This document shows positions 1 to 3,638 of a stretch of 4,278 nt of DNA, in pieces. The translations under genes were made by a program, and so were the position numbers. Each line of letters opens with the position of its first letter. The first letter of the stretch is position 1. The notes beneath the pieces are model-generated. The model was not told where the DNA came from and did not search any database. It saw nothing but the letters and a program-made list of their open reading frames with translations. The DNA is from a virus (taxonomy: Duplodnaviria > Heunggongvirae > Uroviricota > Caudoviricetes). Location of the stretch: the IMG/VR virus record IMGVR_UViG_2703718871_000027. The stretch is one strand, 5' to 3'.

Positions 1-1230
1 ATGAGCAGAGCACTTAACAAACTGAGCGATACACAGCTGAGGAAAATCAACGGCACACCCGCCCAAAAAACAGCCTTTCTTAATGACGGTGGAAACCTGA
101 GCGTCAGGCATTCAACCAGTGGCCTTTTAACCTGGTATTTCACTTACAGGGCCGGAACGGGAAGGGGGGCACCACCGGAACGCATTAAGCTGGGAAATTA
201 TCCTGATCTGAGCCTGAAATCAGCCAGGGAAAAAGCCGCCCAGTGTCGCGCATGGCTGGCAGAGGGGAAAAATCCACGTCATGAAATGAATTACACCGTA
301 CAGGAAGCGTTAAAGCCGGTAACGGTTGGCGATGCGCTCACCTACTGGCTTGAGTCGTACGCAAAGGAAAACCGTGTGGATTATGACCCACTGAAAAAGC
401 GGCTAAATAATCACGTAATACAGCACATTGGCCCTATGCCGCTGGATAAATGCGAGCTACGGCACTGGCTGGCCTGTTTTGATCGGGTGGCAAAGAAAGC
501 CCCTGTTTCCGCCGGGTTCCTGCTACAGACATGCAAGCAGGCGCTTAAGTTCTGCAGGAAGCGGCGCTATGCAATCAGCAACGTTCTTGATGATATGAGT
601 GTGGCGGACGTTGGGAAAAAACCGGATATAAGTGAGCGTGTCTTAAGTAACAAAGAACTTGGCGAATTATTGCAGGCACTGGACAAAAAAATATTTTCCC
701 CTTACTACGTCGCACTAATCCGCCTCCTGATTGTTTTCGGATGCCGGACAGTAGAACTGAGGTTATCGGAGATCGGCGAGTGGGATTTTACCGAAATGCT
801 CTGGACCGTTCCGAAGGAGCACAGCAAAACGAAGGTAGCCATATTCCGGCCCATACCGGAAGCGATACTGCCGTTCGTCACGCAGCTGGTGGAGCAGAAC
901 AGGCACACGGGCTTATTGCTGGGGGAAGTGAAACAGGAAACCAGCGTATCGCAGTACGGCAGATTGGTGCACAGGAGGCTTAAACACCCTCACTGGTCAC
1001 TGCATGACATCCGGCGCACCTTTACAACCATGCTGAACGATTTAGGCGTTGATCCTCACGTCGTGGAGCAGCTTACAGGCCACCAGATGCCAGGAATGCA
1101 ACGCGTGTACAACCATTCCCGCTATATTGATGCGAAACGCAATGCGCTTGATATGTGGGTGGAGCGGTTGGAGATACTGGCGGGAACACATGAAAACGTA
1201 ACCACGCTACCAGTAACCAGAATAAAATAA
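1..1230 (+). CDS. int: Tyrosine recombinase, P4-type integrase family (N-terminal arm-binding domain plus C-terminal catalytic domain)
   Basis: 409-aa ORF from ATG at 1 to TAA at 1228-1230. N-terminus (LSDTQLRK...LNDGGNLSVRHSTSGLLTWYFTYR) fits the P4-integrase arm-binding domain pattern. C-terminal half has the tyrosine-recombinase catalytic residues in order: GCRTVELRLSE (Arg), HDIRRTF (His-x-x-Arg), GHQMPGMQRVYNHSRY (His and Tyr nucleophile). Window starts at the ATG, so an upstream extension cannot be excluded. Confidence 0.9.
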   Translation: MSRALNKLSDTQLRKINGTPAQKTAFLNDGGNLSVRHSTSGLLTWYFTYRAGTGRGAPPERIKLGNYPDLSLKSAREKAAQCRAWLAEGKNPRHEMNYTVQEALKPVTVGDALTYWLESYAKENRVDYDPLKKRLNNHVIQHIGPMPLDKCELRHWLACFDRVAKKAPVSAGFLLQTCKQALKFCRKRRYAISNVLDDMSVADVGKKPDISERVLSNKELGELLQALDKKIFSPYYVALIRLLIVFGCRTVELRLSEIGEWDFTEMLWTVPKEHSKTKVAIFRPIPEAILPFVTQLVEQNRHTGLLLGEVKQETSVSQYGRLVHRRLKHPHWSLHDIRRTFTTMLNDLGVDPHVVEQLTGHQMPGMQRVYNHSRYIDAKRNALDMWVERLEILAGTHENVTTLPVTRIK

Positions 1231-1315: not shown

Positions 1316-1413
1316 CGAACAAGAGGCCAAAAAGAATACAGATTTATAAGTTACTGATTTTTAATGCTCAGCTGGTTTTTTATACATTAGTGAATTACGC
1401 GTTAAAGCGTGCG

Positions 1414-1450
1414 AAAAAAGGCATAAAACAAGATTTTATGCCTTTGTATT
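1414..1450. terminator. Candidate bidirectional intrinsic terminator downstream of int
   Basis: 10-bp stem aggcataaaa (1419-1428) pairs with ttttatgcct (1434-1443), loop caaga. Flanked by an A-run (1414-1418) upstream and TTGTATT (1444-1450) downstream. Stem is AT-rich, so predicted strength is modest. Confidence 0.4.
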
Positions 1451-1534
1451 AACATGAATTTAAATGATTTTATCCTGATTATTCCTCTTTCTGTAAACCA
1501 TGCGACACCAACATTTGCCAACTCTGAATCATCC

Positions 1535-1604: not shown

Positions 1605-1793
1605 GTGTTAAGCACTGATCGGTTTATACGTGAAAAAGAATGCGAAAAGCTAACAGGCCTTAGCCGCTCATGCCGCTACCGCCTGGAAAAGGCCGGACAA
1701 TTCCCATCACGTCGTAAACTTGGCGGGCGTTCTGTTGGCTGGTCTTTATCTGAGGTTTTGGCCTGGAAGGATAGCTGCAAGGCAGTTCACTAA
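1605..1793 (+). CDS. alpA: AlpA/Vis-family (MerR-like HTH) prophage transcriptional regulator
   Basis: 62-aa ORF with GTG start at 1605, preceded by SD AGGGGG (1594-1599, 5-nt spacer). The segment FPSRRKLGGRSVGWSLSEVLAWK matches the conserved AlpA-family signature (FP..R.LG.[KR]SVGW...E...W). Sits immediately downstream of the integrase, as in CP4-57-type elements. Confidence 0.85.
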   Translation: MLSTDRFIREKECEKLTGLSRSCRYRLEKAGQFPSRRKLGGRSVGWSLSEVLAWKDSCKAVH

Positions 1794-1857: not shown

Positions 1858-1973
1858 GAATAAACGCCATAATACTGAGGTATAACCATGATGAAATATA
1901 CGCCCGTACAGGGGCGGGGATTCGTTCGCCCTGGTGAATCTGAAAAGCCATGCTATAGGGTATTTTCAGGCAT

Positions 1974-2001
1974 AAAAAAAGCGGTCCCGATATGGAACCG
2001 C
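1974..2001 (-). terminator. Rho-independent terminator for the leftward A1-B1 operon (weaker in the + direction)
   Basis: GC-rich hairpin gcggtcc...ggaaccgc (1981-2001). On the minus strand it is followed directly by U7 (complement of the A7 run at 1974-1980). On the + strand it is followed by CTTTCT. Lies about 70 nt downstream of the B1 stop. Confidence 0.55.
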
Positions 2002-2069
2002 CTTTCTGAACAATTAACCCGCTGCGCCGTATGTGTCAACAATCATAAGCCCGAACATGATAACCGTGA

Positions 2070-2273
2070 TCAGGCTGGTGGGCAATTACCTTGCTTGTTG
2101 GGGCCGTATTGTGCTGCCATTTTCATCCGTTCAGAACGTGAATATTTTTTTAGAAACTCATCAAGGACAAAAGCGCATGGAGCGAATCTTTCTGATTCAT
2201 GCTCGAGCGCCATATTTTCGTGCTCTCTGTTCGTTTTTTGCGATGGTGTATTGGTTGATTCTTTATTGGTCAT
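2070..2273 (-). CDS. Hypothetical small protein B1 (67 aa), second gene of leftward cassette-1 operon
   Basis: ORF from ATG (complement of 2271-2273) to TGA (complement of 2070-2072), with a weak SD (AGGT) 7 nt upstream. Paralogous to B2: shared MTN N-terminus, F[AV]L[ED][DE]F..KY.R block and PP[AG] C-terminus. Same 57-nt spacing after the A gene in both cassettes. No recognisable domain. Confidence 0.4.
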   Translation of the reverse strand: MTNKESTNTPSQKTNREHENMALEHESERFAPCAFVLDEFLKKYSRSERMKMAAQYGPNKQGNCPPA

Positions 2274-2294
2274 TGTGTGTACCTGTAAAGCAAT

Positions 2295-2321
2295 GCGCCG
2301 TAGTACCTCACGCCACGGCGC
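2295..2321 (-). other. Conserved hairpin between A1 and B1 (possible partial terminator or RNA processing site)
   Basis: Stem gcgccgt (2295-2301) pairs with acggcgc (2315-2321), 13-nt loop. On the minus strand it is followed by AUUGCUUUA. Nearly identical to the copy at 3036-3062 (one loop difference). Confidence 0.4.
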
Positions 2322-2330
2322 TGATAGTAA

Positions 2331-2510
2331 TTATTCTGATTCTTTGGCCTTGCGGCGCTGGCGGCGTTTGATCTCGCCTTTTGCTGCCGTAACTAGAAAT
2401 CCGGCGGTACTTTCGCCAGGTTCTTTAAGTTGCTCAATATCGGTCATTACCTCATGCGGGATTCTGACCGTTGTCATTTGTGATTTTGCGTTCTTTGCAC
2501 CTGTTGCCAT
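2331..2510 (-). CDS. Ribbon-helix-helix (Arc/MetJ-like) DNA-binding protein A1, 59 aa; putative cassette-1 repressor
   Basis: ATG at complement of 2508-2510, preceded by SD AGGAGA (7-nt spacer); stop TAA at complement of 2331-2333. Sequence MATGAKNAKSQMTTVRIPHEVMTDIEQLKEPGESTAGFLVTAAKGEIKRRQRRKAKESE has the RHH layout: beta-strand (TTVRIP), helix A (HEVMTDIEQL), G-x-S turn (PGES), helix B, basic tail. 63 percent identical to A2 with no gaps. The longer 134-aa track ORF (2331..2735) is rejected because it would cross the promoter/operator region. Confidence 0.65.
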   Translation of the reverse strand: MATGAKNAKSQMTTVRIPHEVMTDIEQLKEPGESTAGFLVTAAKGEIKRRQRRKAKESE

Positions 2511-2530
2511 TTCTGGTTCTCCTGATAATC

Positions 2531-2623
2531 GGTGTATTTCAGTATACGCAAAAAAAAAGATAAAAAAAGTCTTGCGGTGTATTTCACCTGAATGTAGATT
2601 TAAAAATGAAGGTGAAATACACC
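2531..2623. promoter_or_regulatory. Cassette-1 divergent promoter/operator region with three GGTGTATTTCACC-type sites
   Basis: Sites at 2531-2542 (ggtgtatttcag), 2576-2588 (ggtgtatttcacc) and, inverted, 2611-2623 (ggtgaaatacacc). Candidate rightward promoter: -35 TTGCGG (2572-2577), 17-bp spacer, -10 TAGATT (2595-2600). Candidate leftward -10 TATACT (complement of 2541-2546), overlapping the first site. Operators overlap promoter elements as expected for repression and autoregulation. Confidence 0.5.
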
Positions 2624-2634
2624 CAAAACAACAA

Positions 2635-2666
2635 CGCCCCGCAGTGATGGGAACACATACGGGGCG
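2635..2666 (+). other. Cassette-1 rightward leader hairpin (7-bp GC stem) ahead of a conserved RBS and ORF start
   Basis: cgccccg (2635-2641) pairs with cggggcg (2660-2666), 18-nt loop. Followed by TCTAACCAA, SD GAGG (2686-2689) and ATG 2698. The same order of elements occurs in cassette 2 (hairpin 3385-3411, TCTAACCAA, GAGGAG, ATG 3444). Confidence 0.4.
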
Positions 2667-2747
2667 TCTAACCAAACCATTAATTGAGGTAACGATTATG
2701 GCTATAAAAGAGCATAGCTTACTCTTTATACACACACAAACGCCCCG

Positions 2748-2767
2748 GAAACGGAATAATCCGTTTC
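2748..2767 (-). terminator. Weak hairpin at the 3' end of the cassette-2 leftward operon (downstream of B2)
   Basis: gaaacgg (2748-2754) pairs with ccgtttc (2761-2767), loop aataat. On the minus strand it is followed by a G/U-rich stretch (CGGGGCGUUUGUGUGUGU), not a clean U-tract. On the + strand a displaced T-run (2777-2780) follows. Confidence 0.3.
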
Positions 2768-2786
2768 ATAGTTCGGTTTTGTGCAC

Positions 2787-3014
2787 TCATCCTGGCGGTC
2801 GGTTTTTGCCGGATTTAAGCCGCCGTGGGTATTTATCGACAAAATCTTCAAGGGCAAATTTTTCTGGTGGCACTAAGCGCGGCGCTGGTGGTGGTATTTT
2901 TGTTCTGGTTAGTTCTTCCTCAACTCTGGCGCAGGCTTCTGACTGCCTTTGCCGGATGATTTCATCATCTTGCGTTTGCGTGTCTTGTATTGGTGATAGT
3001 GTGTTGTTGGTCAT
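2787..3014 (-). CDS. Hypothetical small protein B2 (75 aa, Pro/charge-rich), second gene of leftward cassette-2 operon
   Basis: ATG at complement of 3012-3014 with SD AGGG 7 nt upstream; stop TGA at complement of 2787-2789. Paralog of B1 with the same gene order and 57-nt spacing after the A gene. No recognisable domain. Confidence 0.4.
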   Translation of the reverse strand: MTNNTLSPIQDTQTQDDEIIRQRQSEACARVEEELTRTKIPPPAPRLVPPEKFALEDFVDKYPRRLKSGKNRPPG

Positions 3015-3035
3015 GATACTGCCCTGTAAAGCAAT

Positions 3036-3062
3036 GCGCCGTAGTACCTCACACCACGGCGC
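3036..3062 (-). other. Conserved hairpin between A2 and B2 (copy of 2295-2321)
   Basis: Stem gcgccgt (3036-3042) pairs with acggcgc (3056-3062). Identical stem and near-identical loop to the cassette-1 copy. Confidence 0.4.
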
Positions 3063-3071
3063 TGATAGTGA

Positions 3072-3251
3072 TTATTCTGATTCTTTGGCCTTGCGACGCT
3101 GGCGGTATTCAACTTCCCGCTTTAATGCAGCTGTAACAAACTGCCCTGTACTTTCGCCGGGCATTTTTACCGCCTCAACATTGTTCATAACTTCATGTGG
3201 AACCCTTGCCGCAACTGTTTGTGATTTTGCGTTTACTGCTTTTGTCGCCAT
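3072..3251 (-). CDS. Ribbon-helix-helix (Arc/MetJ-like) DNA-binding protein A2, 59 aa; putative cassette-2 repressor
   Basis: ATG at complement of 3249-3251 with SD GAGGGG 8 nt upstream (an in-frame GTG 9 nt further upstream is possible but has no SD); stop TAA at complement of 3072-3074. Sequence MATKAVNAKSQTVAARVPHEVMNNVEAVKMPGESTGQFVTAALKREVEYRQRRKAKESE aligns with the Arc repressor fold pattern (beta-strand, P-x-E-V helix A, G-x-S turn, helix B). Paralog of A1. Confidence 0.65.
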   Translation of the reverse strand: MATKAVNAKSQTVAARVPHEVMNNVEAVKMPGESTGQFVTAALKREVEYRQRRKAKESE

Positions 3252-3280
3252 GTTGAGCACCCCTCATAAAAAACAAATGC

Positions 3281-3354
3281 AGTATGCAGGAAAAAAAACA
3301 AGTGTTCAACACTTGACGTGTTTAACACCTCGATTTAAATTGGTGTTCAACACC
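3281..3354. promoter_or_regulatory. Cassette-2 divergent promoter/operator region with three GTGTT-N-AACAC palindromes
   Basis: Palindromes at 3302-3312 (gtgttcaacac), 3318-3328 (gtgtttaacac) and 3342-3354 (ggtgttcaacacc). Rightward promoter: -35 TTGACG (3313-3318), 17-bp spacer, -10 TAAATT (3336-3341); the sites sit upstream of -35, in the spacer, and over the predicted start site. Leftward promoter: -35 TTGAAC (complement of 3304-3309, inside the first site), 17-bp spacer, -10 CATACT (complement of 3281-3286). Confidence 0.55.
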
Positions 3355-3384
3355 TTATTTAGGCAAGGTGTAGAAACGACGAAA

Positions 3385-3411
3385 CCCCGCACTGTAGGAG
3401 CAGTAACGGGG
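3385..3411 (+). other. Cassette-2 rightward leader hairpin (counterpart of 2635-2666)
   Basis: Outer stem ccccg (3385-3389) pairs with cgggg (3407-3411); inner stem actg (3391-3394) pairs with cagt (3401-3404); loop taggag. Followed by TCTAACCAA, SD GAGGAG (3433-3438) and ATG 3444. Confidence 0.4.
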
Positions 3412-3443
3412 CTTCTAACCAACAACGTAAACGAGGAGCCGTT

Positions 3444-3638
3444 ATGGTTGCCGTAAATCATATACCACACCTTGTACACACACAAACGGCCTTTGTGTGG
3501 CGTTTTCTGGCACTGAGTGCCGGAGAATCTCAAATAATCCACGTAACCGCCTGGACGGAACGCGAAGCACGTAACCGTTGCCCGTCAGGTTGTGTTGCTG
3601 TATTCGCCGCCCGTATTCGCCAGGGGGTAGGCTTATGA
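3444..3638 (+). CDS. Hypothetical protein (64 aa), first gene of rightward operon
   Basis: Strong SD GAGGAG with 5-nt spacer to ATG 3444. N-terminus M-[AV]-[IV]-x-x-H-x-x-x-[FL]-[IV]-H-T-Q-T is shared with the cassette-1 start at 2698. Stop TGA (3636-3638) overlaps the next ATG (ATGA), indicating translational coupling. Caveat: hairpins lie inside codons 12-27, so the 5' part may act as RNA. Confidence 0.45.
   Translation: MVAVNHIPHLVHTQTAFVWRFLALSAGESQIIHVTAWTEREARNRCPSGCVAVFAARIRQGVGL
3479..3508 (+). terminator. Terminator/attenuator-like hairpin inside the 5' end of ORF 3444-3638
   Basis: cacacaaa (3479-3486) pairs with tttgtgtg (3492-3499), loop cggcc, followed by GCGTTTTCT (3500-3508). 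A second hairpin follows immediately: ctggcac-tga-gtgccgg (3507-3523). Confidence 0.3.

Follow-up and report, generated by a model that had tools for sequence, protein, structure and literature searches.

Small proteins encoded behind ribbon-helix-helix genes and a conserved hairpin in phage satellites of Escherichia coli

Several small modulators of phage repressors have been described, among them the P1 co-repressor Lxc (82 amino acids, aa), P1 Coi (69 aa), RstC of RS1 (74 aa), P4 epsilon and the arc-ant operon of P22, in which the ribbon-helix-helix (RHH) gene arc is followed by its partner ant. Modulators of the Lxc/Coi type act by binding the regulator and not DNA. Genes expressed together with a prophage repressor are often exclusion genes, lambda rexAB being an example, and lambda N and HK022 Nun are arginine-rich peptides whose target is an RNA hairpin encoded immediately before their own genes. 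In P4, immunity itself is an RNA (CI). Here we compare with these systems a stretch of 4,278 nucleotides (nt) from the IMG/VR virus record IMGVR_UViG_2703718871_000027, which was analysed at its full length and is called the window below. Judged from its gene content, the window is the left end of a capsid-forming phage-inducible chromosomal island (cf-PICI) of Escherichia coli, of the EcCIEDL933 kind. Its minus strand carries, between alpA and the Icd-like gene (icd), two modules in which a small gene (B1 or B2) lies behind an RHH gene (A1 or A2). The two small genes and the conserved hairpin that precedes each of them are the subject of this study.

The original prediction, made from the letters of the window, had placed B1 (67 aa) and B2 (75 aa) each 57 nt past an RHH gene, with a weak ribosome-binding site of its own, and had taken them for rapidly diverging relatives that retain an MTN start, a core motif and a C-terminal PP[AG], B2 being in addition rich in proline. 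The spacing is exact in both modules, and weak Shine-Dalgarno sequences are indeed present, AGG lying 8 nt before the ATG of B1 and AGGG 7 nt before that of B2. The proline-rich stretch of B2 is KIPPPAPRLVPP. When the two proteins are compared by BLASTP the match is marginal (E 0.005) and limited to the N-terminus, where both begin with MTN. Profiles of the B1-type and B2-type subfamilies align by hhalign with a probability of 91% (E 1e-6) over 24 columns, the core SERFAPCAFVLDEFLKKYSRSERM being matched to APRLVPPEKFALEDFVDKYPRRLKS. This shared 24-residue core, P-x-x-F-A-L-E-x-F-L-x-K-Y-x-R, is the sole conserved part of B. The N-terminal part is hypervariable and mosaic among members, and both terminal parts are variable in length, low in complexity and fast-evolving, so that the expected pattern of rapid divergence around a retained core is confirmed. 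The C-terminal PP[AG], by contrast, did not hold up as a family feature: the ending NCPPA is restricted to the B1 subtype of the window itself, other B1-type members end otherwise, and in the island of E. coli O157:H7 EC4115 the corresponding DNA (ATTGCCCACCAGCCTGA) falls beyond an earlier stop of the B gene. An arginine-rich stretch, ARKRRRRKIEHESER, occurs in B1-type members only, and many of these have a tryptophan flanked by basic residues near the C-terminus.

Members of the B family range from 49 to 92 aa and are hydrophilic. The 45 distinct proteins collected from all loci have grand average of hydropathy (GRAVY) values of -1.8 to -0.5 and isoelectric points of 5.4-10.8, and none of them contains a hydrophobic segment. 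An AlphaFold2 (AF2) model of B2, based on an alignment of 19 sequences, consists of a helix (residues 9-38), the proline-rich linker, a second helix within the core (residues 54-61) and a basic tail. With a mean predicted local distance difference test score (pLDDT) of 75 and a predicted template modelling score (pTM) of 0.34, B2 is predicted to be a non-globular helix-linker-helix and not a compact fold. Foldseek found no match to this model, a profile search of PDB sequences with B returned nothing, and only chance-level matches were obtained when B1, B2 and the 23-member family alignment were compared with Pfam, NCBIfam and PADLOC. The single exception among the family collections is phrog_21027, a PHROGs family with no annotated function, which is matched by B1 (E 2e-12, residues 1-48) and by six of the 23 family members (best E 1e-32), and is not matched by B2. 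Going by these profile matches, only the B1 subtype belongs to phrog_21027; a name is gained thereby, and not a function. B thus belongs to no described family, and the doubt expressed earlier about its likeness to known toxins is upheld. B2 carries no annotation in the record NZ_CP023165, although the DNA there is 97.8% identical to the window.

According to the original prediction, non-coding spacer in place of the B genes would reveal itself by frameshifts or stops at homologous loci. In a scan of IMG/VR for the hairpin, all 91 usable sites were followed by a B open reading frame (ORF) with the core motif, yielding 40 distinct proteins of 49-75 aa, one of which is frameshifted at the C-terminus; the scan was seeded on the hairpin with its 5' arm fixed, which leaves islands whose cassette has diverged or is absent under-represented. 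The outcome thus favours coding. All gaps in alignments of B DNA are multiples of three, the codons of FAPCAF and KFALEDF differ across variants at third positions only, and the ratio of nonsynonymous to synonymous substitution rates (dN/dS) of B is 0.14-0.86. However, a frame that is open on the opposite strand shares the third codon positions of B, which weakens the third-position and dN/dS tests, and for the same reason dN/dS was not taken on its own to prove coding. The conservativeness of substitutions was therefore compared in all six frames, with gene A as a positive control. The B frame proved the most conservative, with 57.7% identity and a mean BLOSUM62 score of -0.41, whereas the remaining five frames scored -0.64 to -1.16; the B alignments had been guided by the B protein, which introduces a small bias towards this frame. 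The open antisense frame across B, at 56.6% identity, has a mean score of -1.16. When the same test was applied to A, a known family aligned without gaps from 32 loci, the score was +0.13 against -0.97. Selection therefore acts on the A and B proteins and not on the antisense product, and by these comparisons B1 and B2 are genuine homologous small-protein genes that make up a family of their own.

The unit conserved at these loci is not 'A plus B'. It is made up of the last codons of the upstream gene, UAA, 9 nt, a hairpin, AUUGCUUUAC, AGG, 7-8 nt and the AUG of B. A stretch of ~83 nt shows only 3 mismatches between the two modules of the window, and the sequence on either side of it has diverged much more. 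Across loci the hairpin has the pattern GCGCCGUGG-N9-CUNCGGCGC. In 107 of 108 cases the gene before the hairpin ends in UAA (UAAU or UAAA for the most part), and in 102 of 108 the hairpin starts 9 nt past the stop; the ATG of B lies 57 nt from the stop in 84 of 89 cases and 54 nt from it in four, and the position of the AGG is constant in 15 of 15 spacer variants. The 81-nt stretch forms the same stem, at -19.5 to -24.3 kcal/mol, in the four loci whose hairpin is canonical; the L059 variant, with its 39-nt spacer, gave no significant fold. Three of the four types of substitution in the 3' arm retain pairing as G-U, which is possible only in RNA of the A/B sense, and one common variant (A to C) disrupts a pair; since the 5' arm was fixed in the search pattern, this is weak evidence of covariation. 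Two further roles were considered for the spacer and rejected. The hairpin is not regarded as an operator of A, because the promoter regions carry different, module-specific repeats, and a promoter for B inside the spacer was dismissed after a promoter scan found none.

A1 and A2 score 62.1 and 59.7 bits against the NCBIfam YlcI/YnfO model (NF041551 / DUF3950; cut-off 30), in agreement with their RefSeq name. Their fold is that of RHH proteins: the N-terminal strand and two helices superpose on solved RHH structures, the best match being the DNA-binding domain of the antitoxin CopA_SO, followed by several other RHH antitoxins. A would be the repressor of the satellite. Literature searches for YlcI/YnfO, DUF3950, a cf-PICI repressor, and PICI together with ribbon-helix-helix yielded no information about what A or B does. 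The ylcI gene of E. coli K-12, in the DLP12 prophage, was set aside as a guide to B, because it stands solo, divergent from nohD and with no B-like neighbour.

The hairpin-B unit follows YlcI/YnfO-type genes of 59, 65 and 89-107 aa that end in ...RRQRRKAKE(S/Q)E, and the last ~12 codons of these genes are part of the conserved cassette. The same unit also follows unrelated Arc/CopG-like RHH genes of 43-57 aa that end in ...ELQQRGIEPKG, as in the island of O157:H7 EC4115, which we take to be of the EcCIEDL933 type. Altogether, 61 distinct A-B pairings were found, spanning the two unrelated RHH families. At the EC4115 locus (L076, 3334-3738), RefSeq calls the region an 'Icd-like' pseudogene on the opposite strand and annotates neither the Arc-like RHH gene (57 aa) nor the B gene (57-62 aa).

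In the window, the modules are the product of a tandem duplication of B, A, the promoter region with its operators and the 5' end of icd, as delimited by the module alignment (2040-2790 versus 2760-3500, minus strand). The leftward RHH-B operon is divergent from the operon of icd and the replication genes and lies behind operator repeats that are specific to each module; the two copies encode different A proteins. A different set of repeats in each promoter region fits two regulators with unlike DNA specificity, and the two sets are likely to be the operators of A1 and A2, which would confer different satellite 'immunities'. The doubled module is also present in seven among the IMG/VR hairpin loci listed, with the hairpins 573-741 nt apart. 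Just upstream of the icd-like start, both modules contain a second conserved hairpin, CCCCGC...GCGGGG, followed by TCTAACCAA, on the plus strand at ~2636-2666 and ~3385-3412. It could be an RNA element similar to CI/seqA of P4; Rfam, run on the whole window, gave no match to C4/CI or isrK.

Word-indexed searches returned 15 clusters for B1 and 17 for B2, with organism names that are all E. coli, and an exhaustive profile search of 1.84 billion representatives returned 21 B proteins of 41-100 aa. Every member with an organism name comes from E. coli or Shigella, one of them from strain ED1a. The DNA of the spacer and B1 has a match in 1592 of 5426 complete E. coli genomes. B is present regardless of the integrase of the island, the variant of AlpA or the replicase (AAA_25 RepA, D5_N primase or DUF927); it was never found away from the PICI regulatory position, and every B is preceded by an RHH gene. 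None of 50,697 phage records was matched in tblastn searches with B1, B2, A2 and a 27-residue core, the hits of the core to mycobacteriophage reductase genes (E 3-9) being attributed to chance. The only plasmid records with B are three very large E. coli 'plasmids' (41% identity), which we take to be chromosomal pieces.

Conservation of B wherever A occurs, which the original prediction had suggested as a check, was not borne out. In 52 loci with A homologues from other Enterobacterales species no B-like ORF is found behind A, and Salmonella islands have A alone. In the genera that lack B a hairpin, often terminator-like by eye, usually stands directly behind A. In Klebsiella, Kosakonia and Raoultella the slot behind A is occupied by unrelated genes of 79-87 aa, the ATG of which overlaps the stop of A (ATGA); no Pfam or PADLOC family was matched by them. 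The rightward operon of a Salmonella PICI (L168) includes, at 2064-2294, a PF25738 'Derepression' gene, the name of which hints at a relationship to P4 epsilon. Since related Salmonella islands already have this gene in the rightward operon, B is unlikely to be a de-repressor serving a helper phage.

The strand of alpA and icd contains a frame that is stop-free from 1879 to 3453, lies antisense to B1, A1, B2 and A2, crosses both promoter regions and extends 12 nt into icd. The equivalent frame is open in 14 of 14 related E. coli loci over 867-1572 nt (the other two frames have 3-16 stops); among IMG/VR sites it is open in 87 of 89, and among the A loci of other genera in 32 of 33. In synonymous shuffles the openness within A and within B is unremarkable (P 0.37-0.62 each), and that of the non-coding parts is beyond expectation (P 0.002 and 0.02). 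In P4, eta and kil lie behind vis, and translation of eta keeps transcripts from the late promoter from terminating (PMC10111431). The islands studied here likewise possess an alpA/vis homologue, a long open frame and an Icd/Kil-like gene of 64-65 aa. In EC4115 the frame, of 314 codons, is continuous with that of the 65-aa Icd-like gene, which is thus the end of the long frame as kil is that of eta. Unlike P4, these islands embed a protein regulator gene and B antisense in the frame; we know of nothing encoded antisense inside P4 eta. Taking the open frames together with the analogy to P4, we conclude that A and B lie antisense within a frame of the eta type, one that probably has to remain translatable. 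The amino-acid sequence of the long frame is conserved no further than A and B impose. Mutagenesis at A and B must therefore keep the opposite-strand frame open, and naive knock-outs are likely to be confounded. As far as the searched literature shows, the B family, the hairpin cassette and the antisense embedding in an eta-like frame are undescribed.

Three smaller observations concern the same frame. Its 5' part outside B1 (1888-2069, plus strand), MMKYTPVQGRGFVRPGESEKP...RLSEQLTRCAVCV, is clearly similar by eye to that of EC4115 and may be a real N-terminal domain; it had no Pfam match. The tail NCPPA of B1 is the antisense of a conserved QAGGQ in the long frame. Over codons 5-10 of the frame there is a leftward terminator-like hairpin (1901-1916, minus strand; CGCCCCTGTACGGGCG followed by TATATTTCAT), ~155 nt past the stop of B1, which may be the end of the A1-B1 transcript.

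The assignment of the window to a satellite follows from its surroundings. It is 96-98% identical to E. coli chromosomes, and the annotated loci at this level of identity continue beyond the window with DUF4222, the RepA helicase, ssb/SSB and perC/PerC and, further on, with genes for capsid, protease, portal, head closure, connector, HNH, TerS and TerL. A P4-type integrase, alpA, a replication module and capsid, portal and terminase genes of its own agree with the definition of PICIs and cf-PICIs (bioRxiv 10.1101/2022.09.08.507074), which also demands the absence of tail and lysis genes. The sole match of Rfam to the window was the Brucella small RNA model BSnc120 (1381-1462, plus strand; 27 bits, where the gathering score is 114). 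This match centres on an AT-rich hairpin in the interval from int to alpA and is almost certainly due to chance. Features of the window are collected in Table 1.

Table 1. Positions of features in the window, with examples of genes occupying the slot behind A in other loci
Feature	Position	Strand	Details
int	1-1230	+	P4-type integrase gene at window start
alpA	1605-1793	+	
Long stop-free ORF	1888-3456	+	522 codons; GAGG, a good Shine-Dalgarno sequence, before ATG at 1888; resembles P4 eta
B1	2070-2273	-	ORF, 67 aa, B1-type subfamily; phrog_21027 match; RefSeq WP_000182306.1 'hypothetical protein'
B1 conserved core	2136-2186	-	Residues 30-46, FAPCAFVLDEFLKKYSR; hhalign match to B2-type core
A1-B1 spacer	2274-2330	-	57 nt: 9 nt, hairpin, AUUGCUUUAC, AGG (2282-2284), ATG; in frame with A1, stop-free
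Hairpin 1	2295-2321	-	GCGCCGUGG-CGUGAGGUA-CUACGGCGC, exact match; 81-nt stretch -21.8 kcal/mol, z -2.6
A1	2331-2510	-	YlcI/YnfO-type RHH regulator, 59 aa
Module-1 operator-like repeats	2531-2623		GGTGTATTTCA(CC), three copies: two direct (2531, 2576), one inverted (2610-2623)
Truncated icd-like start	2699-2770	+	Remnant of module duplication; module alignment, read from sequence
B2	2787-3014	-	ORF, 75 aa, B2-type subfamily; WP_012601535.1 in one RefSeq record
B2 conserved core	2820-2870	-	Residues 49-65, PPEKFALEDFVDKYPRR; hhalign; AF2 short helix at 54-61
A2-B2 spacer	3015-3071	-	57 nt, layout as A1-B1; AGGG at 3022-3025
Hairpin 2	3036-3062	-	GCGCCGUGG-UGUGAGGUA-CUACGGCGC; 81-nt stretch -24.3 kcal/mol, z -2.8; terminator-like in scan
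A2	3072-3251	-	YlcI/YnfO-type RHH regulator, 59 aa
Module-2 operator-like palindromes	3302-3355		GTGTT(C/T)AACAC, three copies
Icd-like gene	3444-3638	+	Followed by replication operon
Unrelated genes in the slot behind A (examples)	L170 3192-3446; L007 and L044 just after A stop		

In order to account for these features, we tentatively put forward as the best explanation, while holding it with rather low confidence, that B is a low-level, trans-acting modulator of the switch by which the satellite is turned off and on. B would be produced from the mRNA of the upstream RHH regulator by read-through of the GC-rich hairpin. The hairpin and AUUGCUUUAC would act as a leaky terminator or attenuator, which could sense the ribosome at the UAA stop, and B would be translated from its own weak AGG-N7/8-AUG start. 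Such an arrangement would provide a low level of B alongside the regulator during quiescence of the island. The conserved amphipathic core helix would then dock on a partner common to the PICIs of E. coli. Because the types of A and B reassort freely, this partner should not be the variable DNA-binding domain of A, and candidates are the conserved basic tail of A, AlpA or a host transcription factor. Through its partner, B might tune the switch, for instance by imposing a threshold that spontaneous induction through AlpA would have to exceed. That B is expressed by read-through, binds a partner and has a regulatory role is in each case inferred.

Several points weigh against such a role. Homology searches yielded no partner or activity for B. 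PICIs of sister genera have close homologues of A without B, and a component of the switch would have to be dispensable there. The unrelated small genes of Klebsiella, Kosakonia and Raoultella make the position behind A look more like a slot for cargo than the seat of a core regulator. In addition, the hairpin could be a full terminator, with B being little expressed, and for the fast-evolving N-terminal half an arms race with a phage or competitor is as plausible a cause as housekeeping regulation.

It is possible, if on balance unlikely, that B is accessory cargo of the 'moron' type, expressed in quiescence and acting on a superinfecting phage, a rival satellite, the helper or the host. The slot is empty in most genera and filled by other genes in three of them, the named members of B are confined to E. 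coli and Shigella, and a hypervariable, mosaic N-terminus is what an arms-race interface would show. However, no PADLOC defence model was matched beyond chance level, and accessory genes are usually patchy, whereas B is intact at every hairpin site, in a scan that is blind to islands without the cassette. Against cargo stands also the conserved expression cassette with which B travels behind two unrelated families of regulators, and the 24-residue docking helix suggests one constant target.

A broader form of the regulatory explanation, which we regard as improbable, is a two-strand overlapping switch, consisting of the AlpA-driven open frame and an antisense RHH-B immunity operon. B would in this case be young, possibly born de novo, and its helix would bind AlpA (or Rho or RNA polymerase) and set the threshold of induction. 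As an addition to such a switch, the UAA, the 9 nt, the hairpin and the in-frame spacer might serve as a recoding or translation-sensing device. If true, the two-strand switch would fill the role of the 'missing repressor' of Gram-negative PICIs.

The location of B wholly antisense to the open frame of the alpA strand raises the alternative that the B frame acts in cis, its translation shielding the leftward transcript from Rho, so that an extension of ~250 nt could work as antisense RNA or as a colliding polymerase against the alpA-driven frame, with the peptide being largely incidental. The variable length and the low-complexity, fast-evolving ends of B would fit an incidental peptide, the terminator-like hairpin at 1901-1916 lies over the start region of the long frame, and in genera without B a hairpin usually follows A directly. 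We nevertheless consider this decidedly improbable. In the 24-residue core the amino acids are conserved, replacements being conservative (L/I, F/Y, D/E, V/L) and accompanied by synonymous changes, and substitutions in the B frame are clearly more conservative than those in the antisense frame, neither of which would be expected of an incidental peptide.

The order of an RHH gene and a small second gene had suggested a type II toxin-antitoxin layout, with A as RHH antitoxin and autorepressor and B as a new small toxin checked through the C-terminal tail of A. The proximity of the fold of A to the CopA_SO domain and to other RHH antitoxins, the RHH gene before every B and the inclusion of the last ~12 codons of YlcI-type A genes in the conserved cassette would all be in keeping with this layout, and toxin-antitoxin systems are known to exchange the DNA-binding domains of their antitoxins. 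However, obligate pairing is contradicted by A without B at the 52 loci of other Enterobacterales species and in Salmonella, cognate co-evolution by the free assortment of A and B in 61 pairs, and tight coupling, by overlap or close spacing, by the 57-nt spacer with its strong GC-rich hairpin. B is hydrophilic, without a hydrophobic segment and predicted to be non-globular, it resembles no toxin family, fold or solved structure, and it is confined to the regulatory position of PICIs, being absent from the phage records and, apart from the three very large ones, from the plasmid records. Three of the four features that define such systems, namely a recognisable toxin fold, an obligate pair, and tight coupling with cognate co-evolution, are thus lacking. 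The toxin-antitoxin interpretation of the locus is not supported, and we regard it as very unlikely.

Least likely of all, to the point that we give it hardly any weight, is a recoding signal at which some ribosomes pass the stop of A, aided by the hairpin 9 nt downstream (a spacing typical of recoding stimulators), and produce an A-linker-B fusion: B is in frame with A at spacer lengths of 57, 54 and 39 nt, the spacer is stop-free in 14 of 15 sequence variants and some A genes already have C-terminal extensions of ~45 residues, but the UAAU and UAAA contexts are the strongest terminators in E. coli, the remaining spacer variant has an in-frame UAG, no codon-level constraint was seen in the spacer, B keeps a conserved AGG-ATG start of its own, and no natural A-B fusion was found among 74 clusters of the A family (two clusters of unusual length were inspected).

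The leftward module of RHH gene, hairpin and small protein bears on how Gram-negative PICIs stay silent and fire. One island that carries it is of the EcCIEDL933 type, and family membership places it in strain ED1a as well. Even if B should turn out to be ordinary cargo, a false toxin-antitoxin lead is removed and the RefSeq annotation of EC4115 is corrected.

Among the known systems, type II toxin-antitoxin pairs such as ParD/ParE, CopA_SO/ParE_SO, RelBE and TacAT resemble the modules in that an RHH gene, here likely to be autoregulated through the nearby repeats, precedes a small gene; they differ in that the module described here is fixed at one position of a satellite and doubles as the divergent regulator of the early operon. 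With lambda N and HK022 Nun, B shares small size, a basic and largely unstructured or helical protein and a conserved RNA hairpin immediately upstream. Unlike in N and Nun, the arginine-rich motif is lacking in B2-type and other subtypes, in which the hairpin is unchanged; the hairpin does not co-vary with the N-terminus of B, and no boxA- or boxB-like features were found. Sequence or structural similarity of B to P1 Lxc and Coi, P22 Arc-Ant, RstC or P4 epsilon was not detected. Like Lxc, Coi, RstC and epsilon, however, B is very small, belongs to a mobile element and is encoded in or next to the immunity region. By analogy, therefore, the nearest known kinds would be the small repressor-associated modulators and the cargo genes linked to a repressor, such as lambda rexAB.

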